This document shows, piece by piece, positions 17,118 through 33,557 of a stretch of 64,000 nt of DNA; position 1 is the stretch's first letter, and every line of letters starts with the position of its first letter. A program made the translations under genes and the position numbers. This DNA is from Candidatus Thorarchaeota archaeon. GTDB taxonomy: Archaea > Asgardarchaeota > Thorarchaeia > Thorarchaeales > Thorarchaeaceae. The DNA lies in the NCBI GenBank assembly GCA_963726195.1, contig CAVSBO010000003.1, positions 576,001-640,000 on the forward strand, in the 5' to 3' direction. Below the pieces are notes generated by a model. That model saw nothing but the letters and a program-made list of their open reading frames with translations, was not told where the DNA came from and did no database searches.

Positions 17118-17733
17118 CTGCGTGACTAGCCTCCAGACGCTTGGAACAGGGAGTCCCAAGCAGTGCTGCGGAATGCGACACACCCTGACAAATATCCCCA
17201 GCGCATCACGCGGAGCAGTATAATGCGAATCTCTACCAGCGTCTTGGATACTATGGAGCTCCCGAAATAGAAAATGCACTCTATTATTATGAATTCTTGA
17301 CACCAACAGGTTATGACATGCGTTACGATATACTCATTACGGAGTTCCTCGATTATTCAGCATTCAGTCGTGATTACTAGAGTGTGAAGTCAGGAGATCC
17401 ATGAAAACAACTCAAAATACCTACTAGCCCAGGCGCGCTTCTACGGCCTCAATGCACCGTAGGGCAGCACGCTAGCGATATGCCCACAGACTCTGCAAAC
17501 CCTTTCGATTCTCCGAATGCAAGGTGGTATCACAGGGCCTGCACTTCTCCGTAATCCCGTTGTTTGTACGGCCATCTTGTACCCCCGATGCTATGAAAAA
17601 GCATCCTAATGACTCTACTGCATCTCAGCGTTCCTTTGGCATTCGCTTGGGTCTTCTCTGGTTCTATACATGTCCACGACGTTGCATCCTAACACCCAAG
17701 AATCCAGTAAGGAGTTGTGATCATGGTGAAGAA

Positions 17734-18486
17734 ATGATAGCCAAGTTAGAGGCTCAGCTGCTTTCGCTCAGCGCAGTTCGCAGAAACGGCGTCGGCACGG
17801 TGGATGTCACAGGCCCACTTCAAGTGATGTTGAACAACGGAGACCGTTGCATCGTCAATGCAAGACTCCGATATCATGGGCCAGACACTAGTTCGTGGCT
17901 TGCGGTGGTAGTCGGTCTCAGGAGTCGAATTCTCGCCCCATTCAGCAGGTTCGACAGCGAGAGAAACCAGTTCTTGCCTTGTGACATCCCCGGTCTGGTC
18001 CCCGCTTTAGCTCTCACGGTGGCCCATCAGGATTGCGGACTCGCAGTGAGTGCCATAGCACATGATACATTCACCCACCTTGTCCTTGTGTTCGAAGGAG
18101 ATGTAGCCGCCAAGGGAGGTAATCTGAGATCGCTCGCCACGTCTGTTTGGAGCTTCATGAAACGTTGGACAGACTGGACGGATGTATTGCTGGCCACTGC
18201 TTCGCGTGATCCATCAGTAGCTCAGTGGAACGTGGACTGGCGTGAATTCCTCGCTGGAGAGTCAGGGTTCGTGACCATGCCCTGGTTCAAACCGATGAAT
18301 TACTCAGAGAGAGCTCTTGGGCTAGAGACAATCGTGGCGGCCTCTAAGTCTCTCTTGGCATCTGTTCTCAGCCAAGCTCAGATGGAGGATTCTGCAATTC
18401 GAACACTCACTTCTTGGCTGTATCAACTCGCACCACTTGTAGAGATTGTCGGGGGAATGGAAGCGGCAGAGGAGGCTGAAGTCTAA
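17734..18486 (+). CDS. Hypothetical protein (first gene of the recombination/repair operon)
   Basis: Long ORF with ATG 17734 behind GGTGA; Trp-rich WREFLAGESGFVTMPWF segment; no recognised family. Confidence 0.7.
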   Translation: MIAKLEAQLLSLSAVRRNGVGTVDVTGPLQVMLNNGDRCIVNARLRYHGPDTSSWLAVVVGLRSRILAPFSRFDSERNQFLPCDIPGLVPALALTVAHQDCGLAVSAIAHDTFTHLVLVFEGDVAAKGGNLRSLATSVWSFMKRWTDWTDVLLATASRDPSVAQWNVDWREFLAGESGFVTMPWFKPMNYSERALGLETIVAASKSLLASVLSQAQMEDSAIRTLTSWLYQLAPLVEIVGGMEAAEEAEV

Positions 18487-18487
18487 C

Positions 18488-18955
18488 ATGATGTGTGAAG
18501 ATGAATGTCGAAACCTTCCGAGATTGACTGTAGAGATCATGGGGCCCTCATGGATAGCCGGAGCAGTGACCGGCATCAAAGCGTCCAGAAGACGAAGCAC
18601 GGATTGGATTTGGGAATGTTTCGTCGAGGAGTTGTATGACACAGTCGAGCGGATGGGAGGAATTCAACCAGCCGAACCAGCCAGCTCACCGGCGGACGAG
18701 GACGGCTTCGCGGGCTCAGCATACGACACGCTGGGGGGTTACGTGAGCACAGCAGGCGAAATCCGTTCTCAGGGACTCTACTTCAGTCTCTCTCCGAAAC
18801 ACTATGAGAACGTTATGAGCCTGCTTCCGGACTTTGTGATGCTCAGGGCAAGAGGTGGTCTCATTGTGCCACACTATGAACTACGTTCCTTCCTGAATCT
18901 CGTGCCTGTGAACGGGCCGTTGTTGGACCAACTAGCCGAGGGGGGCATGCAATGA
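18488..18955 (+). CDS. Hypothetical protein
   Basis: Starts 1 nt after the previous stop; its stop overlaps the RadA start (ATGA). Confidence 0.7.
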   Translation: MMCEDECRNLPRLTVEIMGPSWIAGAVTGIKASRRRSTDWIWECFVEELYDTVERMGGIQPAEPASSPADEDGFAGSAYDTLGGYVSTAGEIRSQGLYFSLSPKHYENVMSLLPDFVMLRARGGLIVPHYELRSFLNLVPVNGPLLDQLAEGGMQ

Positions 18956-20028
18956 CAGAGCTTGAGGCGGTATCAGGAGTCGGGCCTGCAGTTGCCAAGA
19001 AACTGCGAGAAGTGTTTGTGACAACAGCTGAACTTCTAGCTGTGCAGAATCATGTGGACTTGCAGAACAAGACCAAGATGGGAGAAGGCACCGCTCTGAA
19101 GATCATACGAAACGCCAGACAATTGGTTGGGCTTTGCGGTTTCAAATCCGGTCTCGAAATCGAGCAAGAGATGTCGAGCAAGCCTAGGTTGAGTGTGGGA
19201 ATCGACAAGGCAAATGCAGCACTTCTTGGCGGAATTGAAACAGGTTCGGTCGTGGAGTTCTACGGTGCTGCCCGAAGTGGGAAGACACAGTGGTGCGGTC
19301 AACTTGCTGTTATGGTTCAGCTACCCAAGGAAAAGGGAGGACTTGAAGGCCGTGTGCTTTGGCTGGACACGGAGAGCTCCTTCAAACCATGGATTATCCG
19401 GGCAAACGCAGTGCGGTTTGGTCTGGACCCGGATGTTGCCTTGGGAAACATAGGTCATGCTCACATCGTAATGACTGAACAGATGACGCAGCTGTTTGAG
19501 AATATACCGCAGCTGTGCGCGGAGCAAGACTACAAGCTCGTAGTGATTGACTCATTGACTGGACTGTTCAGAGCTGAATACACCGGGCTTGAGCTACTGA
19601 GAGTGAGGCAGCAGGAAATGAACAGCCTCCTCAATCTGATGAGACGAACTGGTACCGCGACTGGCACAATCTTCTGCTACACCAACCAGGTCATGGCGAG
19701 CATGGGGACATTCAGGTCGAACCCGAACTCGCCCGTTGGCGGGCACATACTCTCGCACGCTTCTGACTATAGGTTCTACGTCAAGAAGAAGCTGAAGGAT
19801 GTGAGGGGTCTTCAGCTTCAAGATAATGCTGGAATACCCGAATTCGATCTTGATGTTGTCATTGGTTGGGGAGGGTTTTACACAGATGCGAAAACGAAGA
19901 AGAAACTCGAAGCAGACGTTCTAGAGTATCTTAGGAAAACCGGCTGGAACCCTGAGATCGCAGAGAGTGGCGAGGACTCTGAGGAAGTAAAGGAAGAGAC
20001 TGAGGAGATTGCGGAGGAAAACGAATAG
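18952..20028 (+). CDS. radA: RadA/Rad51-family recombinase (divergent paralog with acidic C-terminal tail)
   Basis: N-terminal HhH (VSGVGPAVAKKL), polymerisation-like FKSG, GGIETGSVVEFYGAARSGKTQ, VQLPKEKGGLEG, LDTESSF, LVVIDS, FRAEY, RQQ, TNQV and PVGGHILSHAS. Confidence 0.85.
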   Translation: MTELEAVSGVGPAVAKKLREVFVTTAELLAVQNHVDLQNKTKMGEGTALKIIRNARQLVGLCGFKSGLEIEQEMSSKPRLSVGIDKANAALLGGIETGSVVEFYGAARSGKTQWCGQLAVMVQLPKEKGGLEGRVLWLDTESSFKPWIIRANAVRFGLDPDVALGNIGHAHIVMTEQMTQLFENIPQLCAEQDYKLVVIDSLTGLFRAEYTGLELLRVRQQEMNSLLNLMRRTGTATGTIFCYTNQVMASMGTFRSNPNSPVGGHILSHASDYRFYVKKKLKDVRGLQLQDNAGIPEFDLDVVIGWGGFYTDAKTKKKLEADVLEYLRKTGWNPEIAESGEDSEEVKEETEEIAEENE

Positions 20029-20048
20029 TGCTGGCCAAAGAGAGAGGC

Positions 20049-20474
20049 ATGTTCCGCATATATCAGTGCCCTCGATGTCGAAACATTGGATTTGCCCAAG
20101 TCGAAAGCGAGGAGTGTGTTTCACGATGCAGCCTGTGTCAAGGGCCCATTGTGCATATGCCCGCCATGCAGTATGCTGCGACCATTCAGGAGGCAGAGTC
20201 GTACGTCAAAGAGGCCGTAGCCGGATCGAAGCTGAAGCCAAGATCCGCAGGCAGCCTACGAACGATAGGGCTGAAGAAGCGAGTGTTCAACATAATTGAA
20301 GCTCTCGTGGACATGAACAGGGGTTTCCCAGTAACGCTGGACGAGGTTCTTCGTGAATGCACAGATGCCGGCATAGATACGGATAGGGCAACGGACTTCA
20401 TTGAAGCGCTTCTCACTGAAGGAACTCTCAGTGGAGACAAGCTCGGAATGAAACCAGCAGGGAGGCCTTCGTGA
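20049..20474 (+). CDS. Zn-ribbon plus winged-helix protein (DUF5817/MCM C-terminal-like)
   Basis: CPRC...CSLC zinc ribbon followed by a VTLDEVLRECTDAGIDTDRATDFIEALLTEG wH domain. Confidence 0.65.
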   Translation: MFRIYQCPRCRNIGFAQVESEECVSRCSLCQGPIVHMPAMQYAATIQEAESYVKEAVAGSKLKPRSAGSLRTIGLKKRVFNIIEALVDMNRGFPVTLDEVLRECTDAGIDTDRATDFIEALLTEGTLSGDKLGMKPAGRPS

Positions 20475-20475
20475 G

Positions 20476-21102
20476 ATGTCCGACACCGAGCATACAACGA
20501 CACCCATCTGGGTAGCGCCCACGCCCCCGAATGTCGCAGGAAGCTCTCTCATAAACTTGGCCAACCTGCTTCTAAGAGAGACAAACAACCGGGTCACAAC
20601 GCTCCGACAATGCGATGGCCCGAATCCGGAGCTCTTCATCGTTTCAAGAGTAGATTGGAAGGATTCCGACCCAGAGAAGCCCATGCTGCCTCAGTTGCCA
20701 AAGATTCTTTCTCTGCTTGAGACTTTGCGTGAGACGAAAGGCGTGCCTCACGAGATATTCTTGGATAGTAATGATGGTGTCGCAGTCTACTTGCCAACTG
20801 GATCAAGGGTTTCTGACCTGCCGCGGAACCCAAAAGAAGCCCTTCGGGTTCTCATGGCTCTCGTCCATGACACCGTCGCGAATATGCTCTCAACAATGCA
20901 AGATGTAGAAAACTGCTTCTGGATTGCCGCTCGCAGAAAGGGGTTCAGCCCTGAGATAGTCCAGAGAATGGCACTGAAGGAGCAACACTACGACTCGCCT
21001 GCGCTGGTTAGGGAGTTTCATAGAATATTGAGGAAGTACTTCTCGATTCGTTTTCACATTCAGAGGAGCGAGTCATGCCTGTACGTTGAGGAGGAAGACT
21101 GA
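20476..21102 (+). CDS. Hypothetical protein
   Basis: 208 aa ORF coupled to neighbours (TGATG overlap with the helicase). Confidence 0.7.
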   Translation: MSDTEHTTTPIWVAPTPPNVAGSSLINLANLLLRETNNRVTTLRQCDGPNPELFIVSRVDWKDSDPEKPMLPQLPKILSLLETLRETKGVPHEIFLDSNDGVAVYLPTGSRVSDLPRNPKEALRVLMALVHDTVANMLSTMQDVENCFWIAARRKGFSPEIVQRMALKEQHYDSPALVREFHRILRKYFSIRFHIQRSESCLYVEEED

Positions 21103-23058
21103 TGGCAACTGTGAACGGTCCTCTCCGATACTTTCCATATACGCCCAGGCCGTACCAGGACCGGGCCGTTGCATTCGCCGCTCAAGTATTCTCATCCAAA
21201 TCGGTGGGACTTCTCTCTGCAGATTGTGGAGTGGGAAAGACCATCGCATCTCTTTCAGGCTACCTCGCTGCGCGTGCAGACGATGGCGAATCAAGGTTGA
21301 TTGTTCTCACCCGGACACACTCACAAGCTCGCGTATTCGAGAATGAACTAGTGACACTAAGACGCCTTCTTCCTTCTCTGACTGCCACGACAATCCAGTC
21401 GAGGGTCCATACCTGTCCAATAAAGGAGCAGGTTGGGTCAGTGTCTCTCACGGGGTTCATGAGAGCATGTGCGAATCTGATCAGGACAGGCAATTGTACT
21501 CATTACTGGGCCTTCTACAGGAAAGGGGATGGTAGAACTCAGATAAGGGACGGGGTTCAGCACGAAGTAGACGACCTGCTCGACTCCGGTGTTGTCACCC
21601 GGGACATTGTCGATGATCGTGCACGTGACATGGCTGTTTGCCCATATGAACTGATGAAACATTGTGCTAGGGAGAGCCGCATCGTGATAGGCCCCTATAG
21701 CTACCTGTTTCGCGCCCGTGTACGTGATGCGACTCTCAGTTCGCTGGCTACGAGCCTAGAGAAGCTCGACGTCATAGTCGATGAAGCTCACAATCTTCCA
21801 GGTCATATTCTGGAATCAGAAGCGGCCAAATTGAGTTGGGACGATCTCAAATGGCTGAAAGAGAACTCTGCTGAAATTGCCAAGGATTCTAGCGTGAAGT
21901 GGTTGGCCCAAGCCACGAACTTCCTCTGGGAGACAGTGACGATTGCCCTTGACGGATTGAATTCACGCAATGAGAAGGTACTTGACAAATGGGACGTGGC
22001 TCCAAGGTTCGTGGACGAGAACGGCTTGCGGCTTGTGAGTGCGGCTGACACGCTACTTGGAGACCCGGATGCTCTGTCGACCGTTGAGACTCCCTTCGAC
22101 AGACTGATTGAGTTTCTACTCGCAGCATTACGGGCGGCGAAGAGCGACGACTGGCACATATCAGTCGAAACTCGAAAATCGTTTCAGGAAGAACAGAGCC
22201 ATCCGGCTTGCGAACTCGTGATCAGGCCGCTGAACTCTGCCGGTCTTGCCGCGCCCGTGTTGAGGGGTGCGCGTTCTGCCCTTCTAATATCCGGCACTCT
22301 GAGACCTCTCGAGTACTATGCGAGACAGCTAGGTATAGCCAAACCACTCTCAGAGGACCTAGCGAGTCCCTATCGACGTGGGACAAGACTCATACTGGTT
22401 GACAAGAGTGTGACTACCAAATATGAAGCTTAGAAACGATGAACTCTGGCGTCGAATGGCTCAACGAATCCAAACCGCTCTCTTGTCACTGCCCGCAAAC
22501 AAGAGCGCTCTCATAGCCTTCCCGAGTTATGCGATTCTGCATGAAGTCCTCAGCTATGGGATAGACACAGGATATCGGGGGACGATTGTAGAGAGTCCGC
22601 GAGAGCGAATAGAGAACCTTGTGGAAGCAATCCTTGAAGGTCCAAAGGCCGTTTTTTGCGTCTATGGCGGGAAGTTCAGCGAGGGCGTGGATTTGGCTCG
22701 AGACGGTTCGAGCCTACTCGAAATGATAGTCGGTGTGGGGTTACCGTTTACGCCACCTAGTAGCTACTTGGAGGCACAGCGGAATTGGCTCGACGCAAGA
22801 TTCGGTGAGGGCACGGGGTACTTCTATGGCTCAGTCATTCCGTCCGTAAGGCAGGTTCTGCAGCTGATTGGCCGATTGAGAAGATCGCCGGAGGATTCAG
22901 GCGTAGTAATCCTACTTGACAATCGTTTCCTAAGGTACACATCTGTCTTGGGCGAGGACATGGTATCTGACATCTGGCCATTTGCAGACCTCGAAGAAAT
23001 GAGACTAGCTATTTCTGAGTTCCAGAGACAGAGGGAGGTATGCACGATTGCGTCTTGA
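21102..23058 (+). CDS. XPD/Rad3/DinG-family Fe-S DNA helicase (frameshift at ~22428)
   Basis: Q motif FPYTPRPYQ, motif I GVGKT, TRTHSQ, four Fe-S cysteines (HTCP, RACA, GNCT, VCPY), DEAH and SGTL. The second ORF has FPSY, GGKFSEGVDL, VGLPF, QLIGRLRR and LLDNRF. Confidence 0.9.
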
Positions 23059-23650
23059 TTCAGTTCGAAATGAGTGGGTCCTGCTGTCGGTGCTACTCTT
23101 GTTTTGGTCCTACAAGTCAGTCACAGAGACTGGCATTCCCATCTCGGAACTAGTGTGGCTTGCCGGTCTAACAATCACAGTGGCAATCATGGTGATTCTC
23201 AAAGGGACGAACCGGAAACCACTCGTTTTGTGGAACGACCCCGATGGAATCCTGATGCTGGTGAGACCTTGGAGAGTAGAAGCATGCGCCGCCAGACTGA
23301 TGACAAGCGTCCCGTTGGGAATAGACCTCACTCGTTCTGCCTGGCGGGTATTGCAGTCAATGCATCCCGCAATGTCGGATGGCAGGAGTCGTTCACTGAG
23401 ATTCTTTGTTTGCAGGCCTCTAGGACAAGGGCCTTCACGTGTTGGCATCATCGTGGCGCGATCAAGATTCAGAATCGGTAACAGTGGAAGAAGGAGCGCG
23501 GCACTTTCGGATAGTGTTCTGCAAGATGCGAGAATCCTTGAGGGTGCAATGAAGGCAGCTTATCCACATATGCCCATCGAGAAAGCCGGCTTGCCCGATA
23601 TCATGATGGTTGTCCAAGGAGGAGTCCAATCCGTTGCAGAGCTCGAGTAG
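23048..23650 (+). CDS. Hypothetical membrane protein (2 N-terminal TM helices)
   Basis: Hydrophobic WVLLSVLLLFWSY and LVWLAGLTITVAIMVIL; GGAGGT RBS; overlaps the helicase stop. Confidence 0.7.
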   Translation: MRLDSVRNEWVLLSVLLLFWSYKSVTETGIPISELVWLAGLTITVAIMVILKGTNRKPLVLWNDPDGILMLVRPWRVEACAARLMTSVPLGIDLTRSAWRVLQSMHPAMSDGRSRSLRFFVCRPLGQGPSRVGIIVARSRFRIGNSGRRSAALSDSVLQDARILEGAMKAAYPHMPIEKAGLPDIMMVVQGGVQSVAELE

Positions 23651-23942
23651 TCAGAGAACCGGGTTGACCCTGCCTCACAACGTGAAACCCGAGGCATTGA
23701 TGGATGCCCTCACAAAAGGTCATGGGTATCAATGGATTACCCTCGCAAGGCGGCCCGTCCTGTTAGTGTACGGTGAAGCGACTTCTCAAGAAATGCCCCA
23801 GCTTCTCTTTACGGGAAACACCACGCTCGTTGTTTCGAGTGCTGACCCAGCTTATGTGGAGCGTCTAAGAAGAATGCTGCAAGTACTCGAGCAGCAGGAA
23901 GAGAAGCAGTTCCTAGCACAGGAGGCCAAGAGCGGTGAGTAA
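23634..23942 (+). CDS. Small hypothetical protein
   Basis: TTG behind GGAGG; overlaps both neighbours. Confidence 0.6.
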   Translation: MQSSSSQRTGLTLPHNVKPEALMDALTKGHGYQWITLARRPVLLVYGEATSQEMPQLLFTGNTTLVVSSADPAYVERLRRMLQVLEQQEEKQFLAQEAKSGE

Positions 23943-26271
23943 AGGGTTAGTGGTGGGTCCCAAGCCCGAATATGACCCCTTTGGCGAAAGGACACAGTCT
24001 CCACAGGAGACATCTCCAACCGGAGAAATCAGGTGGGACAACAGAACTGCAGGCAGGTCCTTCAGACAATTAGGTGCAATGGGAATACTCATAGCTGTGC
24101 TTGGCACCGCATATCCTGAAGGTCTTCTCATTGGAACCGCGGCGATTCTCGCAGGCATCTTCTTACTATCTCGATTGAACGGACCTATGAAGATCGATGG
24201 CTGGATAACGTTGCAGCAGGGCGACGTTAGTCTTTCTTCGTCTGCTGGCAACCTTGAAGTCACCGATGTGAGGGGACGCAAGTATGCTGTCGGCATGACC
24301 TTGGACTCTGCTGGTGTCCACCTACTCGGAGACATGGGAGCACTCGTGCGGGCCGCGGACGACTCTAGCGGACTGTGTCTGTTGGTGAGTTTGAAGCCGA
24401 AAGATGGCAAAGCAATCCTGCAGGAAGACAAGATTAGCAGGTCCACTTGCAGGTTCTTGAATTCTCTTTCTGAAGAGGCGCTCAAGGGGTACTTCGATTC
24501 TCGTGGGGGTCTGTGGGCAGTCCATGCGACACTTATCGGATACGCAAGAGAACAAATCGGATTGCCTGTTCTTGAGTCCGCTTTGAAAGCGGCTGTGCCC
24601 GACCGCGGCTGGCAGACCATGAAGCCATTCGAATTACGTTCGCACATTGAAGAGGATGATGTCGTCGCCGACAATTCATCTTTCTATGGGACCGGGGAGG
24701 AGTTGTCCAAATGGCTGGTCCAGATGGCGACAGAACTATCGTCAGAAGTGGGCACAAACGTCCCGGCGGAATTCGTTGCGCCAATCAGAGAAAGAGAAGC
24801 AGACTACAAGCTAGGGTTCGTAATCAATCCTGAGACATTGCGGCTAGGTCCTCGAGTTGGGCTGTCCCACGGGGATCTCCTAGGCGGACTGATGGTTTGC
24901 GGGGGAACCCAGCCCGAAAGAGGGCTTGTATTGTCCCTTCTCACGGCGGAACTCCTGCAATCAGGCAAGAGAATCATCCTTGTGACCAATGACCGTGGCA
25001 CATTATCCTTGACAGGTCTGTGTGATGGCGCAGTCGGCCTTGAGCTTGGAAAGGACTTGGTGTTGAATCCTGCAGACCCAGAAGGAATGCAGAGAACAGA
25101 GTACGTGCCGCAGCTCATCGCGGCGCTCGAAGTGCTGTGTGGCACTGAGCTACGAACTGCAGTCGAGCTTGAGATTGCCGTCAACAGGGCGGCGAGTCTA
25201 GGAAACGGAACTGTGGCCGACATTGCGATGGCTGATTCCGCGGCAATGGGCACGACCACTGAGACTGATGCTTCGATTGGGACCACTGTGTCGAAGGCAT
25301 CACTGCTCGGCTTTGATGCTGTCCGCTCATTGCGTCAAGGCTCAGGGGCCAATGCATTCTATGGCACACAGACTGTATCGCTCCAGACGATGGCTCAAAC
25401 ACCCCTAGTTGTCATCGTGATGTCCCTGGAATCTTCGGCACTTCAGAGATTCGCTTGGGACCTGTTGTCAATAAAGGTCAGTGGAATGAAACCAGACTCC
25501 GATTTGGTTGTCATCCTTGATAACCCAGAGAACCTGCGAGTCAGGAATAGACCATTTGGAAATCGTGATGTTCGAAGCGAGAACATAATTCGCAAGCTGA
25601 TAATCAGAGGACCATTACTTGTTGCTTTGGACCATCCTGCTGACATGGCCGTCGGAGCCATCGGCAACCTTTCTTCATGTCTATCACTTCGACTCCGCGA
25701 TAGTGCAGACCTGAAAGTTGCTTCCGATCTTTTGGGTCTTGGAGTCATCGCCACGGGACTACACAGCAAGGCCAGACAATCATCCAGAGAGACATCCTTC
25801 CTGCGTGTCATGCCGCCGGACGTGGCGGTTCTGTCACGCGGCAGATCGGAGATTGGTATCCCAATTAGGTTGGACAAGACACCAACATCCCTCGGAACAC
25901 CTCCTCCACAGGAATTGTCGCGCAGGATATCTCGGTTTTCGCCGAGCTCCAAGGACAAAGAGACTCAGGCCAAGACTCTGCTTGAACAAGTCGCAGGCGG
26001 AGACACGGAGTTGGCCCGGAGTGTCCTCCGTTTGTTGATGAGGTACGAGCCTCTCACTGAGGAGGCCGTTCGGAAATTCATTAGGTCGGACAAGCGTCAT
26101 GAGAATGCGGACGTCGAGGGAATCTTGGCCCGCTTGGAAAGGGCGAACATGATTCTTCGTGGGCACGAAGTGCACGGCGGTGTATCTTACACTAACTTCC
26201 GTGTTACGATGAAAGGAACAATGGCAATGCGGCAAGAAGTCCCAGAAGGTGGTCGCGATGTTGGTCACTGA
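23935..26271 (+). CDS. Membrane-anchored HerA/VirB4/CedB-like (DUF87) ATPase homolog with degenerate Walker motifs and C-terminal wH domain
   Basis: Two N-terminal TMs. VGLSHGDLLGGLMVCGGTQPERG at the Walker A position, ELGKDLVLNPADP, VVILDNPENL at the Walker B position, and ALDHPADMAVGAIGNLSSCLSLRLRDSADL. Confidence 0.65.
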   Translation: MSKGLVVGPKPEYDPFGERTQSPQETSPTGEIRWDNRTAGRSFRQLGAMGILIAVLGTAYPEGLLIGTAAILAGIFLLSRLNGPMKIDGWITLQQGDVSLSSSAGNLEVTDVRGRKYAVGMTLDSAGVHLLGDMGALVRAADDSSGLCLLVSLKPKDGKAILQEDKISRSTCRFLNSLSEEALKGYFDSRGGLWAVHATLIGYAREQIGLPVLESALKAAVPDRGWQTMKPFELRSHIEEDDVVADNSSFYGTGEELSKWLVQMATELSSEVGTNVPAEFVAPIREREADYKLGFVINPETLRLGPRVGLSHGDLLGGLMVCGGTQPERGLVLSLLTAELLQSGKRIILVTNDRGTLSLTGLCDGAVGLELGKDLVLNPADPEGMQRTEYVPQLIAALEVLCGTELRTAVELEIAVNRAASLGNGTVADIAMADSAAMGTTTETDASIGTTVSKASLLGFDAVRSLRQGSGANAFYGTQTVSLQTMAQTPLVVIVMSLESSALQRFAWDLLSIKVSGMKPDSDLVVILDNPENLRVRNRPFGNRDVRSENIIRKLIIRGPLLVALDHPADMAVGAIGNLSSCLSLRLRDSADLKVASDLLGLGVIATGLHSKARQSSRETSFLRVMPPDVAVLSRGRSEIGIPIRLDKTPTSLGTPPPQELSRRISRFSPSSKDKETQAKTLLEQVAGGDTELARSVLRLLMRYEPLTEEAVRKFIRSDKRHENADVEGILARLERANMILRGHEVHGGVSYTNFRVTMKGTMAMRQEVPEGGRDVGH

Positions 26272-28463
26272 GACTGACATACCAAGCTACGTTCAGAAAG
26301 TGCTTGGTGGCATCGGCCTAGCACCGCGGGGCGTCCAAAAGGCGGCCATTGACAACGGGTTGCTCGAAGGAAAGAGCATCATGGTATGCAGTCCGACTGG
26401 TTCAGGCAAGACTCTCGTTGGCGAAATGGGTGTTCTTCGAGCTGTGGTTTCTGGTCGAAAGGGGCTGTATATGGTACCACTTCGGGCTCTTGCGCTTCAG
26501 GTCGCATCGATATTCAGAGAGAGGTACGGAAGAATCGGCATCAGAGTCGGAATGAGCACTGGAGACTATCAGACCGACGGATCGGAGTTGGCAGAATGTG
26601 ACGTTGTTGTTACAACATATGAAAGAGCCGACTCTCTCCTGAGGCATCAAGCGTCTTGGATAACCGAGATAGGCACGATCGTGATTGACGAGGTTCAGAG
26701 TATTTCAGAACCAAGAAGAGGAGCCCGCCTCGAGAGCACGATTATTCGATTCAACCGGCTTGTCGACGACCTACAAATCATAGCTCTCTCGGCTACGATA
26801 GCAGCTCCCGATGAACTGGCAGAATGGCTTCGATGCGATCTTATCGAGAGTGACGAGAGGCCCGTTCCGCTCCACTGCAAAGTCCTATGCTGCAATAGCA
26901 AACAGGGAATGGTCAAGGACCTAGTTATGACTACTGTGCAAGGGAACGGACAAGCAATCGTTTTCCATCGAACCCGAAGAGAAGCTGAAGTTGAGGCGTT
27001 CCGTCTAGCGTCAGATGTAGGCCGTCAGACTCACAATAGCAGAGAGGAACCGCCTCGACACCGAGCTGGAGTCTCTCGAGAACTGGGCAGTCAGAGTACC
27101 GTCGGAATTGAAGACTGTGATGCACGATGGTACCGGCTTCCACCATGCGGGTCTCAACGCTAGAGTCCGTGATGTTGTTGAACGGCTGTTTCGCACCGGG
27201 CTCATTAGGGTGGTTTGTGCCACAACAACTCTCGCCGCCGGCATGGACCTGCCAGCTCGCACAGTCATAGTCACATCAGTGATTTCGCCTGAGAACAACG
27301 GAGAACTCCTAAACGCCAATAGGGTGCACCAGATGCTCGGCAGAGCAGGACGCCCGAGCCATGACAAGATTGGAGTCGGCATCATACTTGCAGGAAGCGA
27401 GGGCGAAGCTGACGAGCTTGAAGTGAGGTACTTTGAAGACAGAACTGGAGAAGCTGCCGAAGAAGTTCTAATCCCGAAGTATGACAGAGCCAGAAGTGTC
27501 CTAGGTTCTCCGAGTTCGACCACTGAGCAGCTTTTGGTTGCCCTCGATGCAATGGGAGAAGCGTCACTGCAGGAAGTCGAGGACGGAATAATGAGCCAGT
27601 CATTCTTGACGTATTGCGGTATTAGGGACACCCATTCTCCCGCGCGCCTGATCAATCTCGGGGAAATTACGGCTCAGGCCGCAATTGAACACCATGCTCT
27701 GCCCGATTCGCTTCGTGCAGCCAGACAGAAGCTGCTGGGTGCTGTGACTTTCAGAGAGAAGGACGAGACCGCCATAGGTGCCATAGTCACGGACTGGGAC
27801 CGCACTCAATACACATGTCGGTATTCCACTCGGCTATCAAGCAGTGGACTTGTGGATGGCCCACAATGCTCCTGCGGCCGGCCCATTGACCCCCAAGGCA
27901 TACTCTGTACGCACCTGCTTGTGTTGGGTCTGTCAGCGGCCGCGGAGCTGGGTAGCTTGGCAGACTATGTCATTCCCTTGTCTCTCAGCGAATCAAGTCC
28001 ACTTGGTGTCTTGACCAAGCTCGGACTAGTGGAGGGCGCGGAAGAGGGAAAGCTTAGGCCAACTAAGCTTGGGCGTTTGGTCAACCGGTTGTATCTAGGT
28101 CTGCCAACAGCCAGGGAAATGATTGCCCTTCTGCCTACAGTGGAGGACAGTACTTCCCTGCTCTGGCTCGTCAGGCACTTGGTTTCACTGGAAACGGGCA
28201 TGGCGCTAACCGAGCAATTCGAACAGCTAATCGCTGCATTAGCGTCTACTGACACAACAATCGCGGATTTGGCAAGGATTGCGGAACTTCACGAAGGAGA
28301 CGTATACGGTCTCATAGAGACAGTGCGATGGTTGCTGCATTCCATTGACGCCGTTGCGGCCCTCGGTGGATTGTCGAATGTCTGCGGAATGACAACCCGG
28401 TTGTCAGATGCTATCGAATCTAGAATGAAAAAGGGTGAATCCAATGACAACAACGGAAGCTGA
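26258..28463 (+). CDS. Ski2-like (Hel308/HELQ-type) DNA helicase with inserted SWIM zinc finger (frameshift at ~27029)
   Basis: SPTGSGKT, PLRALA, TTYERADSLLR, IDEVQ, LSAT, RPVPL, FHHAGL, ATTTLAAGMDLPA and QMLGRAGRP; SWIM CSC-x11-CTH; PTKLGRLVNRLYL. Confidence 0.88.
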
Positions 28464-30219
28464 CACACCAATGGATATTCCCGAGAAGACCAAGCAATCT
28501 CCTGGAACAGCCAATCAAACGGCAGCGCAGGAAGAGACCAGACGAGAAGCCAGTGACATCACTGCCATCCTAAAGAGCTCGGGTCACAGGGTTCATGTCT
28601 ACTCAAATGGGATCATACTAGGAGTCCGACTAGAGGCAATTCCCGGGACCCACAGCGTGCATGTTGACATCGCGCACGTGGTTGACCTGCGTTCAGGGAA
28701 AGTCTGGAAGACCACTACCGCTATGATGGCTGCGGTATTGGGACTTGTTAACAAATCGCTCCAAAGCATTCTCGAGGACATCGGTCTTGAGGAATCGCTG
28801 AAAGAGAAGCTATTGACTATGCCTTGGGGTCGAATTCGCCTGTCCACGCTTTTGGCACAATCAGGGAAGACCTCCTCGATAGCAATTGAGACGAGATGGG
28901 CGTATGTTATCTACAACGAAGTCCGACCCAAAGCAGACCTTTCCTGGCTGACAGATACAAAGAGAGTACTGAGTATCACCGACTTTGCTCTTTCGCGCCA
29001 GAGCGACATAAGGGCGTCAGCTGCGAAGCTGAGAACCATAATAGCCACTAACAAGACCAGCATGATTCGGGGTGCTGTGGGAAACGGGTGGTATGGCGTG
29101 CTAGCCCTTGTCGCCTCATTGGGTGGACTGATGACTGCCTCAGCGGTCGGCCTAACGCATCCAACCGGAATGGCCATTCCGCTCGTCTTTGCAGGAGTGG
29201 CGGGAGCCGTTGCCATCGACCTTCTATTCACATCAAGAAAGAGGTTCAAAAAACTCGTAAGCGTATTGAAGACCGAGAACCTACGTGCGTCTGAAGTGGG
29301 AGACTCTGTCAGAGCCAAGGAATCGGCTGCAAAGAACCGAGATCTGCTAGAGCTATTGGAAGACCTCACTTTCGTGGTTTCTCCCCTGATGGTGATGGCG
29401 GCTGAAGCACTGCAAGCAGGAGAAGTTGACCGCGCTGTTTCGTCAGCCTCTTGCGTTCTGGATGAGTGTGTACGGCTCGCGCCTTACTCTGGAGACAACG
29501 TGGAACCTATCCTTGGGAGAACAGACGAAGGCCTGAGGAGGTTTCTCGGATTCATGAAACGTCTCGGGGCCACATCAGAAGAAGAGACCTTGGCGGTTGC
29601 CTACGTGGGACTCACGGGACATCTATCGAGTCCGATTGGATTCAGTGAGGTTGTCGCCCACATGACATCACTGACCAATGCGCTCTATGATGTTGGAGTG
29701 CTCAGCCAAGAAGCAAAGGACAAACTCGACAACGTCATGAACACGTGGGCCATGAAGAAGTACGCTGGTGAACTTGAAAATAGCCTTCGAGAACCAGATG
29801 AACCCGAGCCGGTTCCATCTTCGACGCGGGCAGAAGTAGGGACTCAACCAGAACTCACCCACCCTGTGGCGCGCAAGAGGCAAACCGACAGACAAGGTGA
29901 TGTCAAACAGACGTTTGGGCTCATCCGTGATTCTACAACCACTCCTGAAGACTCGCCGCCCATAGAGAAAGTGAAAACACCTGTTGTGTTGCCGATGCAG
30001 GAGTCGCTTGACAGAGCGGATCCTATGAAGTCTACCGGCCGCGACGACCGAGGTCCATCTGAGAAGGGAGGCGAAGTTGTCAAGGTTACGATTCGCAAGA
30101 GAGACAACAGGATTACTCAACTGCAGAGTCAGAAGCCTCTCGCAGAGGCTGTGGTCGGACAGCCTGCCAGCGGACATGCCGCGAAAGGAGAAGAAAGCAA
30201 TGAGGACCCAGACGTGTAG
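28444..30219 (+). CDS. Hypothetical membrane protein (central TM hairpin, disordered C-terminal tail)
   Basis: Hydrophobic WYGVLALVASLGGLM...MAIPLVFAGVAGAVAIDLLF; P/E/K-rich C-terminus; overlaps both neighbours. Confidence 0.7.
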   Translation: MTTTEADTPMDIPEKTKQSPGTANQTAAQEETRREASDITAILKSSGHRVHVYSNGIILGVRLEAIPGTHSVHVDIAHVVDLRSGKVWKTTTAMMAAVLGLVNKSLQSILEDIGLEESLKEKLLTMPWGRIRLSTLLAQSGKTSSIAIETRWAYVIYNEVRPKADLSWLTDTKRVLSITDFALSRQSDIRASAAKLRTIIATNKTSMIRGAVGNGWYGVLALVASLGGLMTASAVGLTHPTGMAIPLVFAGVAGAVAIDLLFTSRKRFKKLVSVLKTENLRASEVGDSVRAKESAAKNRDLLELLEDLTFVVSPLMVMAAEALQAGEVDRAVSSASCVLDECVRLAPYSGDNVEPILGRTDEGLRRFLGFMKRLGATSEEETLAVAYVGLTGHLSSPIGFSEVVAHMTSLTNALYDVGVLSQEAKDKLDNVMNTWAMKKYAGELENSLREPDEPEPVPSSTRAEVGTQPELTHPVARKRQTDRQGDVKQTFGLIRDSTTTPEDSPPIEKVKTPVVLPMQESLDRADPMKSTGRDDRGPSEKGGEVVKVTIRKRDNRITQLQSQKPLAEAVVGQPASGHAAKGEESNEDPDV

Positions 30220-30883
30220 TCATTCCTTTCCGACCTTATTGAAAATCACAGGGCTGGTCCATGTTTGGGGTCCTGCAGGTGCTGGCAAGAGCCTGCTCGC
30301 CATCGCAATTGCGGCCGAGGCATCTCTCGACTCTCGTGTCGAGTGGATCAGCACAGATGGCAAATCATCTTTCATATCTCATCTGAAAAGAAACGTGCAA
30401 CACCGTGGGAGTGCTGCCAATGTTTTCGTCACAATGACGCACAACCACAATGAGGTGCGGCAGACCATTCTCGACCTTGTCACCTCTCTTGAAGGCATGA
30501 GTGCGTTGATTGTGGTCGACCCCTTGACACGTGTCGTGGACATGGCACGTTCCGAGCCTGTAATGTGGGGCCAAGAACTCATCGAAGAAGCCTTGCCAAC
30601 TCTAGCAGCCCTCGCAGCTGGCGGATCAATTGTGCTTGTTACGAGCGAGTGCAGGTCACTTGAGGAAGGAGAGAAGACGCCTGTTCATCACAAGACCATC
30701 AGACGCTGGGCGGACAACGAAATCCTCGTGCAGAGGGAAAAGGCCAGCATGTACTCGACAATCACCAGCATTGATCCGAAGTCTGGTGCACAGAAAGAAG
30801 TCGGCCGACTAAGACTCCTGGAAACAGGATTGATTGAGATTAGTATCTGTCAGCCCGGGTCAGAAACAAGGAGGAGCACTTAG
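30200..30883 (+). CDS. RadB-like RecA-fold ATPase (Rad51 paralog without N-terminal domain)
   Basis: VHVWGPAGAGKS Walker A, WISTD, LIVVD Walker B, VLVTSECR. Confidence 0.75.
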   Translation: MRTQTCSHSFPTLLKITGLVHVWGPAGAGKSLLAIAIAAEASLDSRVEWISTDGKSSFISHLKRNVQHRGSAANVFVTMTHNHNEVRQTILDLVTSLEGMSALIVVDPLTRVVDMARSEPVMWGQELIEEALPTLAALAAGGSIVLVTSECRSLEEGEKTPVHHKTIRRWADNEILVQREKASMYSTITSIDPKSGAQKEVGRLRLLETGLIEISICQPGSETRRST

Positions 30884-30886
30884 GAC

Positions 30887-31858
30887 ATGTTTGGAGGCAT
30901 TCTATGGAAAGGAATTGTGTTCGGCATGGCAGTCATGCTGGTCTTGACTGTCGGGACCGAACTCTTGGCATCAGTCGTGTCCGTCGTGGTGTCTGCCCGC
31001 CGCGGCGACCTAATTCCTATTGTCACGGTCTTTCTCGGTACTCTCTTCATTTCCCTAATCCTGCGGCGACTCAAGAAGCACTCTCCGACCAAGTTACTCT
31101 TGTCAATCTTGGTCTACGGAACAATCGGATACGCAGCCGTGGTTTCATTCATAGCTGTTCTTCCATGGGGCCTTCTTCCATCTCTCATGTCCGCGTCGAT
31201 GACAATACTTGGCTTCTCGGTTGCAGCGACTCCCACGCGGTTTGGAGCGTATCGTTCGCAGACCAAGCTTCGTTCTCTGGCACTGCGTACAGACAACCCA
31301 TCAGGTCGAATTACATCATCGGCGATTGCTGCTCTGTCCGACGCCCTCACGGAACAGGCAAGGGTTGTAATCATTCAGGAAGGGGACAGGGACAAGGTCG
31401 TTCAGCTCATGAAGGAGCGACCCCTTCTGCCCGTATCGATTACTCGCCTTGCCGACTGTTATGCAGTTGTCGTCACGTCCCCAAATTCCGACGAGGTTGT
31501 CTTTCGCAGAGCAATCGACACATTGTCAGAGTTTGGCATATCCCGTGTGAAGCGCGCACGGCATTTGCTCGCAGAGGCTATCCTCATGCTTCCGCTCATT
31601 GACGAGTCATATGGTTTCAGCATGCGTGAGTACCGAGTTGTAAGGGACGACACGACGATGACGCACGTGATTTCTCAATGGCCCGAAAGACTGACTATCT
31701 TTGCGACCAAAGAAGGTCTCGGGGCTCTGGTTCCGGAACGGGCCGCCACAGGTCTGAAGACTGAGCAACTCCCGCGCGGCCTTGAAACCGACGTGGTTCT
31801 GTTTAGGAATTACTCTCTGCTCCAAGGAGATGATGAGTCTGGATCACAAGCCGCTTGA
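30887..31858 (+). CDS. Hypothetical membrane protein (about 4 N-terminal TM helices plus soluble domain)
   Basis: Hydrophobic first ~115 aa; AGGAG upstream; 3 nt after the previous stop. Confidence 0.72.
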   Translation: MFGGILWKGIVFGMAVMLVLTVGTELLASVVSVVVSARRGDLIPIVTVFLGTLFISLILRRLKKHSPTKLLLSILVYGTIGYAAVVSFIAVLPWGLLPSLMSASMTILGFSVAATPTRFGAYRSQTKLRSLALRTDNPSGRITSSAIAALSDALTEQARVVIIQEGDRDKVVQLMKERPLLPVSITRLADCYAVVVTSPNSDEVVFRRAIDTLSEFGISRVKRARHLLAEAILMLPLIDESYGFSMREYRVVRDDTTMTHVISQWPERLTIFATKEGLGALVPERAATGLKTEQLPRGLETDVVLFRNYSLLQGDDESGSQAA

Positions 31859-32561
31859 AGAGATTGAAGTGGACACTACTCCTCGTTTTTCGTTAGTGCC
31901 CAAAACACTAGACGCGGTGTTGGGAAGACTGCTCGCGCCTAGCCAAGTCAGCCTGCTGCATGGTCCCAACCGTGCGCCACTGACAGCGCTTGCACACTTG
32001 GTTACTGTATGTGCAGCCAAAGCCGACGGAAAACGTTCCGTCTATCTGCATGCCGGGAACAACTACAGTCCGACGTTGGCAAGATCGTTGTGCGGCCGCA
32101 ACCAAGACGCTTCGGACATCCTTCAGCGCATAGCAGTCGGAAAGGTGCTTGGTCTGTCAGACATAGAGCACGAGCTATCACTGATTCGCGACGCAGAACG
32201 CGTTCAGTTGGTTGTGGTTGATAGCCTCACGTCAGTCCTTGACTTGAGCGATAGCAGCACCGGTCCAGGAAGACAAAGAAAGCTCTTTCACGCGCTCGAA
32301 ACAATGAGGGAATTCGTCAATAACAGTTCGGCCCACTTGATGATGACAGATCACTCCTCACCAAGTTGGGGCTCAGACGAGCCTTCTCCAATCGGTGGGA
32401 ATGTTGTAGCACACAACGTTGACAGCGTCATACGCGTTGAGAGGTTGGACATCGCTTCCGACGACCTAATCAGCATAGTTGTGGAGAGATGTCCTCTTCC
32501 CAGTCCGCCAACAGGTGTGGTTGTCAGGTTCTCAGCAAAGAGCATCAGTAGCATCAAGTGA
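31830..32561 (+). CDS. Catalytically degenerate RadA/Rad51 paralog
   Basis: LDAVLG, Walker A position LHGPNRAPLT (no GKT), VYLHAGNNYSP, ILQRIAV, LVVVDSL, RQRKL and PIGGNVVAHNVD. Confidence 0.75.
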   Translation: MMSLDHKPLEEIEVDTTPRFSLVPKTLDAVLGRLLAPSQVSLLHGPNRAPLTALAHLVTVCAAKADGKRSVYLHAGNNYSPTLARSLCGRNQDASDILQRIAVGKVLGLSDIEHELSLIRDAERVQLVVVDSLTSVLDLSDSSTGPGRQRKLFHALETMREFVNNSSAHLMMTDHSSPSWGSDEPSPIGGNVVAHNVDSVIRVERLDIASDDLISIVVERCPLPSPPTGVVVRFSAKSISSIK

Positions 32562-32570
32562 GGTCTCTAG

Positions 32571-33557
32571 ATGGGCGTGAAGAAATTCAGCGTGATACCG
32601 TGGATCTGGGTCGGTTCAGACGAAATCTTGGGAACGATTGCTATTGATGCGCCGAACTACATCACGCGAAGAATCTCAGTCTTCAAGCAGAAGAACAAGT
32701 ACAAAGACCGAGTACCTCTTGAGCACCTTCTACTGGGATTCGGCCTTATCAGGACTGCACTCCTGAACAAGGTCTTGCCAGTCTTGATTTTCGATGGACC
32801 GCCAGAATCATTGAAGAGGGAACCAAATCCGGAGCTCGTAGCAAGAGCTCACGAAGTCTATTCTGAGTACTCGCAAGACGGCGACCCATACAACGAAGAA
32901 GTCGCCAAGAGCCTTTCAAGTAGCCCAGCGCTACGCATGTACTTCGCGGCCCAGCACCTCAGAGACTTGGGCCGTGCGATGGGTGTGCCCACTTTGACTG
33001 CATCATCTGAGGCGGAAATGCTGTGCGCGGCAATGTGCAGAGACTCCCTTGTCAAGACAGTCGTATCAAATGATGCAGACGCCATGCTCTTTGGAAGCCC
33101 TCACGTGACGAACCACATGGAGTTATCTCGAGGCCGCATCTGTCGAGCCACCCTTCATGACCTTGAAGAATCATTGTGTCTCGGCCTGGACCAACTGAGG
33201 GACTTGGCAGTTATCTGCGGCTGTGACTTCAACAATGAGGGCATCAAAGGGGTGGGTCCTCATCGGGGAGCCATCCTGTTGAAGAGATACGGGAATCTGG
33301 AAGCTGTGTTGAGAGCGAAAGGGTATGGACGAGCTGAGAGAGAACCGCTGCTTCTTGCGCGTGAAGTCTTCGAACAGACTGCGTACATTTCGCTGGCAGG
33401 TCTCGACATCGCACTTAGACCGCCCATGGTCTCACGGCTGGTTTCGATTCTTCTGCCTTGCTTTGGTCGCCAAAGAAGCGAGGATTCCGCTGAACAGATG
33501 GTCAGCATCTGGCGGGATTTTGGAAAACATCAAGCCACTTTGGAGCAGTGGGTGTAG
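32571..33557 (+). CDS. FEN1/XPG-family 5' flap nuclease paralog with C-terminal PIP box
   Basis: MGVK, IAIDA, IFDG, SEAE, SNDADAMLFG, GCDFN, H3TH GIKGVGP and terminal QATLEQWV. Confidence 0.9.
   Translation: MGVKKFSVIPWIWVGSDEILGTIAIDAPNYITRRISVFKQKNKYKDRVPLEHLLLGFGLIRTALLNKVLPVLIFDGPPESLKREPNPELVARAHEVYSEYSQDGDPYNEEVAKSLSSSPALRMYFAAQHLRDLGRAMGVPTLTASSEAEMLCAAMCRDSLVKTVVSNDADAMLFGSPHVTNHMELSRGRICRATLHDLEESLCLGLDQLRDLAVICGCDFNNEGIKGVGPHRGAILLKRYGNLEAVLRAKGYGRAEREPLLLAREVFEQTAYISLAGLDIALRPPMVSRLVSILLPCFGRQRSEDSAEQMVSIWRDFGKHQATLEQWV

Follow-up and report, generated by a model that had tools for sequence, protein, structure and literature searches.

A conserved Thorarchaeota operon encodes a divergent second RadA and two short RadA-fold paralogs predicted to pair

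Results and Discussion

The operon and its place in the genome

In this study, we describe an operon in a 64,000-nucleotide stretch of DNA (hereafter the window; G000:C3:576001-640000) from a metagenome-assembled genome of a Thorarchaeota archaeon, a member of the Asgard archaea, with an assembly size of 2.9 Mb and a completeness of 88.9%. Seventeen open reading frames (ORFs) on the plus strand, whose neighbours overlap or lie no more than 9 nucleotides apart, make up the operon (Table 1). Three of its products have the RadA/Rad51 fold, namely a full-length RadA paralog, here called RadA2, and two short paralogs, g14 and g16, which are encoded on either side of a membrane-protein gene, g15. 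The original prediction, made from the letters of the window, had placed three RecA-fold paralogs of graded degeneracy in one operon; ORF, Pfam and motif checks confirmed the three frames with their motifs, and the operon stands as well, with its order conserved in other genera. Scans of the window for transfer RNAs and Rfam families returned nothing.

Table 1. Genes of the operon and sites within them, with positions counted from the first nucleotide of the window
Feature	Coordinates	Strand	Description and basis
Operon of 17 genes	17524..33557	+	Second recombination/repair toolkit with membrane proteins; gene packing, conserved order, syntenic flanks
RadA2	18952..20028	+	Full-length divergent RadA paralog, 358 residues; HhH N-terminal domain, all catalytic motifs
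RadA2 linker	19138-19152		GFKSG
RadA2 Walker A	19264-19287		GAARSGKT
RadA2 DTE motif	19363-19377
g14	30200..30883	+	RadB-like core-only paralog; Walker A/B kept, DTE altered, L1/L2 signatures lost
g14 Walker A	30269-30292		GPAGAGKS
g14 site of DTE	30350-30364		STDGK in place of DTE
g14 Walker B	30506-30523		LIVVDP
g16	31830..32561	+	RadA-like pseudo-ATPase, core with short N-terminal arm; Walker A and catalytic Glu lost; ORF also open from 31782
g16 arm	31851-31865		PLEEI, L9 invariant
g16 P-loop site	31962-31985		GPNRAPLT, degenerate
g16 Walker B	32211-32231		VVVDSLT
g16 DNA loop L1	32268-32285		GRQRKL
g16 DNA loop L2	32388-32414		PIGGNVVAH
g15	30887..31858	+	Membrane protein, 3-4 N-terminal transmembrane segments and soluble C-terminal part; hydropathy scan
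XPD-like helicase, DEAD_2 part	21102-22433	+	Split gene; Pfam
XPD-like helicase, Helicase_C_2 part	22423-23058	+	Split gene; Pfam
g10	23935..26271	+	778 residues, N-terminal transmembrane segment(s), weakly HerA-like; hydropathy, family profile
Hel308/Ski2-like helicase, DEAD part	26249-27163	+	Split gene; Pfam
Hel308/Ski2-like helicase, Helicase_C part	27108-28463	+	Split gene; Pfam
g13	28435..30219	+	594 residues, two central transmembrane segments; no family match
FEN1/XPG-like nuclease	32571..33557	+	Second copy; Pfam XPG_I 3.8e-16
GWGGFY motif of RadA2	19864-19881		After the ATPase core
Acidic/lysine-rich tail of RadA2	19950-20025		Variable
CxCx(n)CxH segment	27867-27914		In the Hel308-like C-terminal half
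Convergent gene	33572-35530	-	652 residues; just downstream of the FEN gene

Higher-scoring or complete counterparts of several operon products are encoded elsewhere in the genome. The canonical RadA gene is located some 55 kb upstream of the window, and its product scores 313 bits with the Pfam Rad51 model versus about 182 bits for RadA2; it stands above both NCBIfam cut-offs (NF003301, 474 bits; TIGR02236, 465 bits), while RadA2 misses these curated RadA equivalog marks (258.9 vs 259 and 235 vs 361 bits, respectively). A higher-scoring FEN1 is found on contig C16 (90.6 vs 62.8 bits for the operon copy), which also carries a better-scoring XPD, its match lying within a single, unsplit open frame of 659 residues, and two longer Hel308-like frames are present elsewhere. 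Since canonical copies of RadA, FEN1, XPD and Hel308 sit outside it, the operon represents a paralogous and divergent second toolkit, and RadA2 is not the main recombinase of the cell. What had been described as a full RadA thus keeps its HhH domain and intact motifs, but is a second and divergent copy.

Two further short paralogs are encoded outside the operon. The first, L003, is RadB-like (TIGR02237, 142 bits, below the cut-off of 172 bits), and the canonical XPD match lies about 2 kb from it (G000:C16:169794-172959), so that a pairing of XPD with a short RadA paralog occurs twice in this genome. The second, L004, has 258 residues (G000:C3:692395-692799; locus L004:1426-2202) and belongs to a clade with members in several Asgard families (support 100/99). 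Walker A (YGDRCLTED at this site) and the Asp of Walker B are lost from it, but a textbook FRTA polymerisation/linker motif is present, and it is a second, independent pseudo-ATPase RadA of the same genome.

Motif losses in the three RadA-fold proteins

Motif degeneracy was scored across 13 to 16 orthologs for each of the RadA2, g14 and g16 families. RadA2 matches Pfam Rad51 with an E value of 2.4e-53 (about 181-182 bits) and HHH_5 with 27.7 bits (cut-off 27). Residues G110, K111, T112, D139, E141, D200, R219, Q220, G263, G264 and H265 are invariant in its 13 orthologs, and the L1 signature RQQ and the L2 signature GGH of the DNA-binding loops are kept like Walker A, DTE and Walker B. Its linker is GFKSG in this genome, most orthologs have F-x-S-[G/A] at the site, and the canonical RadA has GFETA. 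RadA2 orthologs also share an invariant GWGGFY beyond the ATPase core, with a variable acidic or lysine-rich tail behind it; neither is present in the canonical RadA.

The g14 protein, of about 225 residues, lacks an N-terminal domain and was modelled as a single RecA-type core. Its longest ORF opens at 30077, and the start at 30200 is supported by ortholog homology beginning near residues 42-55 of that frame. In the g14 family, Walker A (GxxGxGK[T/S]) and the Walker B Asp are kept, DTE reads [S/x]TD, and both L1 and L2 are lost. The position of the catalytic Glu is taken either by a near-invariant Asp53, in a gap-free MAFFT alignment, or by an invariant Lys55, in an hhalign alignment shifted by two residues. 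The g16 protein passes the Pfam Rad51 cut-off (29.2 vs 22 bits), and its losses fall on the other side: a conserved HGPxRAPLT replaces Walker A and the Glu of DTE is gone, while Walker B (VVDSLT), L1 (GRQRxLF) and L2 (PxGGNVxAH) are kept. The graded degeneracy proposed originally is therefore real and conserved across genera, and it is complementary, g14 retaining the ATP site and g16 the DNA loops.

Conservation and distribution

About 20 kb was fetched around each of 15 g16 orthologs. Among the full-length loci of other Thorarchaeota genera, 10 of 11 show the same 17-gene order, and the eleventh (L024) is without a detectable match to the small g09 only. Synteny of the 17 genes extends over at least 12 genera. 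The flanking genes on both sides are also syntenic across genera, so that the locus is a stable part of the chromosome; a mobile or defence island was rejected on the same grounds. Orthologs of RadA2 occur in about 46 assemblies, mostly titled Candidatus Thorarchaeota, at 52-91% identity, below which identity falls to 47% (one contig) and then to about 40%, as is found for canonical RadA of other archaea. Across 24 genomes of the family, RadA2, g14 and g16 are either all present or all absent, and the five genomes in which they are jointly missing are 85-92% complete. In a library of 1.84 billion proteins, g16 forms a small and discrete family of 31 clusters at E values of 1e-30 or lower, beyond which scores sink to the generic RadA/RadB level, and strong g14 matches are likewise restricted to the taxonomic family of this genome.

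The g14 and g16 frames are intact in 15 of 15 orthologous loci. Against a same-genus ortholog, the ratio of nonsynonymous to synonymous divergence (dN/dS) was 0.094 for g14, 0.081 for g16 and 0.101 for the FEN gene, values that are approximate because dS (1.1-2.3) is near saturation. These ratios resemble that of the FEN gene, and neither g14 nor g16 is decaying.

A homologous operon is found in a genome of a sister family within the same taxonomic order (G025), where the genes run as RadA2 (47% identity), g04, g05, split XPD, HerA-like g10 and Hel308, then a cassette of short RecA, transmembrane (TM) protein, short RecA and FEN that recurs from the Thorarchaeota operon. At the position of g15 this cassette encodes a diverged protein of 404 residues with three N-terminal TM segments. 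Looser clusters in three other Asgard families contain a RadA2-type gene together with Hel308-like, g10-like, short RadB-like and FEN genes.

Fold and origin of the short paralogs

Profile and structural comparisons place both short proteins among recombinases, with profile matches well beyond what chance would give. In hhalign, g14 was linked to g16 at 92.9% (E 3.6e-7) and to RadA2 at 94.9% (E 4.6e-8). The g14 sequence gave only sub-threshold P-loop matches in Pfam and, in a single-sequence search of the PDB, only AAA+ noise at the P-loop level. Its best NCBIfam family is RadB (E 1.5e-7), at scores far under the equivalog cut-offs (TIGR02237, 31.5 vs 172.4 bits; NF006861, 19.3 vs 278 bits); ArlH was returned at E 0.026, and no KaiC model at E 0.1 or better. 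With the g14 family profile, the best full-length PDB match was RadB (2cvf, E 5e-6), followed by RAD51D (5e-3), and matches to KaiC (E 0.011) and AAA+ proteins cover the P-loop only. For g16, RadB and RadA rank first in NCBIfam (E 3.6e-10 and 4.8e-8, far under the equivalog cut-offs), and its profile matches RadA/Rad51/DMC1 chains at E 4e-17 to 1e-11, RAD51D at 1.4e-7 and RadB at 2e-7.

The AlphaFold2 models had mean predicted local distance difference test (pLDDT) values of 84.7 (g14) and 87.4 (g16), and comparisons by Foldseek and VIA-align group both with RAD51, DMC1 and RadA and with chains from the human paralog complexes, with top matches all of the Rad51/Dmc1/RadA type. Against RAD51, g14 superposes with a Z score of 20.8 (root-mean-square deviation (rmsd) 2.8 Å, 200 residues) and g16 with 27.4 (2.5 Å, 234 residues); residues 2-243 of g16 span RAD51 80-338, and the g16 N-terminus falls on RAD51 residues 80-100, the linker region. 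As recombinases and paralogs give Z scores within 1-2 units of one another, structure does not pick the nearest subfamily. Both g14 and g16 are true paralogs of the RadA/Rad51 fold. The possibility raised beforehand that they cluster with KaiC-like or unrelated P-loop proteins was rejected on sequence and structure alike.

To place them more closely, 58 RadA-family sequences, all of them from 11 Asgard genomes, were used for a tree under LG+G4; the tree has long stems, relies on a single substitution matrix, and the naming of its groups partly followed inspection of a first tree. It splits into a RadB-like and a RadA-like side (support 99/96). The g14 clade (100/99) stands on the RadB-like side, sister to its positional equivalent in G025 (96/89); the two join cluster-linked short paralogs of two other families (98/92), and the resulting group stands beside the ordinary Asgard RadB-like group. 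The g16 clade (100/100, on a long stem) is on the RadA-like side, where it forms a three-way fork with the L004 family and all full-length RadAs. RadA2 forms its own clade (100/100), grouped with second RadAs of other Asgard families (82/89) and apart from canonical RadA. In approximately unbiased (AU) tests, monophyly of g14 and g16 was rejected (p-AU 0.017), and a recent origin of g16 from the RadA2 of the operon was disfavoured (p-AU 0.018). The sequences thus indicate separate origins for g14 and g16, and the deeper relatives of the short paralogs in the tree are archaeal.

Predicted pairing of g14 and g16

The complex model of g14 with g16 scored 0.73 (0.71-0.74 between runs), versus 0.36 for the best control, and passed a mark that is reached by 58 of 80 solved complexes and by 2 of 110 mismatched pairs. 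Individual runs had at least 82% of their contacts in common, with a partner pLDDT of at least 80. In the best-defined contacts of the model, g16 residues 6-12 (P8, the invariant L9, I12) lie on strand 72-78 and helix 59-66 of g14, together with the invariant W49 and L62, and the P-loop (25-27) and D53-K55 of g14 face Q39, R150, R160 and H195 of g16, the last three of which are invariant. Residues that anchor the modelled contact and are invariant in their families include L9 of g16 and W49, K55, L62 and R152 of g14. Filaments of Rad51 and RadA are built with the same geometry, with an FxxA polymerisation motif and an ATP site sandwiched between protomers. In this setting the g16 arm, L-x-x-[I/L/F], reads as a variant donor motif, of which g14 carries no equivalent. 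The heteromer put forward for the two short proteins is therefore supported by the model as a predicted complex.

A proposed role and its rivals

We propose that the operon is a private recombination module within a second, membrane-associated toolkit, in which the g14-g16 pair nucleates or caps RadA2 filaments, and we hold this tentatively, at a little less than an even chance. RadA2, to judge from its intact motifs, is probably an active strand-exchange ATPase. The short proteins would act as complementary half-proteins, g14 contributing the nucleotide site and g16 the DNA-binding loops. In the predicted filament-like heterodimer, the g16 arm (PLxxI, with Leu9) would run as a strand along the edge of the g14 core, at the FxxA-receiving site, and because g14 has no donor arm the pair would be a dead end on the g14 side. 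The other side would present one free acceptor site, on g16, where RadA2 might dock through its own F-x-S-[G/A] linker motif, and the pair could then nucleate or cap RadA2 filaments by analogy with human XRCC3-RAD51C-RAD51D-XRCC2, which caps the ends of RAD51 filaments (PMC7618403), while g15 may hold the pair at the membrane. It can reasonably be inferred that the pair is a mediator for RadA2; RadA2 as the client, the capping and the membrane tether are conjectural steps. In a wider version, Thorarchaeota and, more loosely, other Asgard archaea would have evolved a capping or loading complex of the Rad51-paralog kind independently of eukaryotes, with its work divided between g14 (ATP binding) and g16 (a pseudo-ATPase with DNA loops). 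Tethered by g15, the pair would serve the private RadA2 within a membrane-anchored machine that links envelope DNA handling (possibly uptake or exchange) to homologous recombination; this version appears doubtful to us.

Several observations weigh against a filament mediator. At the catalytic Glu of g14, alignments differ between Asp53 and Lys55, and the RadA2 linker has Gly or Ala as its last residue (FKSG). The G025 protein at the position of g16 keeps both GKT and DTE, so that the cassette does not depend on a pseudo-ATPase, and the dead ATP site is specific to g16 of the Thorarchaeota family. Taken together, the interface residues show no significant excess of conservation over the remaining positions (p 0.11 and 0.22). 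Since Rad51-type filaments are among solved structures, the complex prediction may partly reflect likeness to them, and a similar arrangement might be predicted for any pair of RecA-fold cores. Finally, the position of g15 and the predicted TM segments in four operon proteins (g08, g10, g13 and g15; hydropathy scan) fit a role in a membrane complex at least as well as one in filament mediation.

Such a membrane complex would join g14, g15 and g16 with g08, g10 and g13 and would place a RecA-fold ATP-binding switch and its inactive partner on a membrane anchor, where they regulate or tether a DNA-handling machine, much as the KaiC/RecA-like ArlH regulates the archaellum motor, with no direct action on RadA2 filaments. 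The g15 gene is separated from g14 by 3 nucleotides and overlaps g16 by 29, it lies between the two in every one of the 14 loci with a g15 ortholog, and the order of RecA, TM protein and RecA is kept in G025 despite sequence divergence; g10 is weakly HerA-like, and the L1/L2 DNA-loop signatures are lost from g14. A pure regulatory subunit, however, would not need the L1/L2-type signatures that are under purifying selection in g16, the closest folds are recombinases, with KaiC and ArlH at E 0.01 or worse only, and a full recombinase gene of the same operon is inherited along with them, and we regard this explanation as rather unlikely. Alternatively, g16 may be an ATPase-dead adaptor like iRadA, taking an oligomerisation-like motif from the FEN, Hel308-like or XPD-like enzyme and not from RadA2. 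The absence of an N-terminal domain together with a dead ATP site is the architecture of iRadA (PMC11791011), and the FEN gene directly follows g16 both here and in G025, but no donor motif was identified in FEN or the helicases, the contig of the operon has no family-B polymerase, and in our model the g16 arm is itself a donor to g14, which is not described for iRadA, leaving this option with only a slim chance.

The short paralogs may also be general mediators of canonical RadA, as proposed for Haloferax RadB, their position in the operon being incidental. Canonical RadA has the textbook GFETA donor motif, and g14 is on the side of the tree that holds RadB, which has been reported as a recombination mediator (PMC5480776). 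On the other hand, the RadB-like L003 and the short L004 are already encoded outside the operon, g14 and g16 are inherited only in the company of RadA2, and cluster-linked short paralogs of other Asgard families likewise lie near a RadA2-type gene; an even smaller chance, in our view, attaches to this role. Decay of g14 and/or g16 as duplicates without a function of their own might be suspected from the lost Walker A and catalytic Glu of g16 and from the long stems of both clades, but it is already contradicted by the conservation data (frames open in all 15 loci, dN/dS of 0.08-0.09, the conserved HGPxRAPLT and confident models), and its probability is negligible.

Comparison with known recombinase paralogs

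The eukaryotic RAD51-paralog complexes (BCDX2, XRCC3-RAD51C-RAD51D-XRCC2, Rad55-Rad57) resemble the g14-g16 pair in being built from RecA-fold subunits of unequal ATPase competence in a filament-like assembly, which for g14-g16 is a prediction, and their subunits act on a recombinase; chains of these complexes are also among the top structural matches of g14 and g16. Unlike them, the pair has two subunits only, encoded in an operon with a private recombinase and with a membrane-protein gene in between, and the g16 profile favours RadA/Rad51/DMC1 (4e-17) over RAD51D (1e-7), no other eukaryotic paralog reaching E 0.001 with this profile. The echo of eukaryotic mediator complexes heard in the original prediction can thus be retained as a functional analogy, and the operon looks like an archaeal counterpart that evolved on its own; the data give no support for direct ancestry, as g16 prefers RadA/Rad51 to RAD51D and the deeper relatives are archaeal.

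Like archaeal RadB, g14 is core-only with intact Walker A and B, and RadB is its best NCBIfam family and best full-length PDB match. It differs in scoring under the equivalog cut-off, in reading STD for DTE and in forming a distinct clade on a long stem, with cluster-linked paralogs of other Asgard families, rather than the RadB-like gene of its own genome, as its sister group. The iRadA of the PolB2 mutasome, for which contact with PolB2 by way of a Rad51-type oligomerisation-like motif has been predicted (PMC11791011), is matched by g16 in lacking an N-terminal domain and ATPase active-site residues and in a predicted Rad51-type oligomerisation-like contact. In contrast to iRadA, g16 has no polB2 or PPB2 (arCOG07300) neighbour, retains L1/L2-like signatures, and is predicted to donate a motif and not only to receive one. 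The parallel with PolB2-associated operons suggested earlier was not borne out by the gene context, and a PolB2/ImuA-like setting was rejected: the two family-B polymerase matches of the genome are on contigs C13 and C7 and none is on the contig of the operon, and DNA_pol_B was absent from the Pfam matches of all operon proteins.

A second clade of full-length RadA in Asgard archaea has been reported with Heimdall-, Gerd-, Njord- and Lokiarchaea named and Thorarchaea never mentioned (Matsuo et al. 2025, PMC12722695). RadA2 resembles it in being a full-length second RadA, a likeness that leaves its membership in that clade aside, and the same paper contains no description of the operon or of short paralogs. 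Full-text literature searches likewise returned no description of the operon or of the g14 and g16 families.

The Thorarchaeota operon offers a genetically compact Asgard case, with a dedicated second recombinase, two paralogs with complementary losses, a specific predicted interface (g16 Leu9/Ile12 in a g14 pocket) and conserved partners, including split XPD-like and Hel308-like helicases, a FEN-like nuclease and membrane proteins. In eukaryotes, accessory RecA-fold paralogs have a central part in recombination (BCDX2, the XRCC3 complex, Rad55-57, Shu), whereas those of archaea are poorly understood, RadB and aRadC being for the most part single genes whose partners are unclear. Should both the heterodimer and its effect on RadA2 be borne out, recombinase paralogs would have evolved a division of labour on more than one occasion, and the pair would be a small archaeal model for the nucleation or capping of filaments. 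A link to the membrane would be new for recombinase paralogs, and it hints that recombination may be coupled to what happens at the cell envelope. The lack of support for ancestry of the eukaryotic paralogs bears on claims of eukaryote-like recombination complexity in Asgard archaea.

Other genes of the operon

Besides its position and predicted TM segments, g15 offers few clues, as it gave no Pfam or PDB match and its family profile was uninformative against the PDB. The g10 family profile returned four HerA entries at weak E values (0.004-0.05), and no GK[T/S] is present at the P-loop position. Between the helicase and the short RecA genes (L160:4591-12390, minus strand), the G025 operon encodes a protein of 2599 residues with terminal TM segments and another with six TM segments.

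Each of the two operon helicases is encoded by two genes, divided where the RecA-like motor halves meet. The split of XPD is kept in all orthologous loci and in G025, where the Hel308-like gene is unsplit (731 residues), and conservation across genera shows that neither split is an assembly frameshift. The Hel308-like C-terminal half contains a segment, CSCGRPIDPQGILCTH, with a CxCx(n)CxH pattern like that of SWIM zinc fingers; it is kept in 14 of 14 available orthologs and in related clusters of four other Asgard families, and Pfam SWIM was the sole family returned for it (E 1.2). In eukaryotes, the SWIM protein SWS1/Shu2 is a partner of Rad51 paralogs. Just downstream of the FEN gene lies the convergent gene listed in Table 1, which has no Pfam match; it adjoins the operon in 13 of 15 orthologous loci and may therefore belong functionally to the locus.

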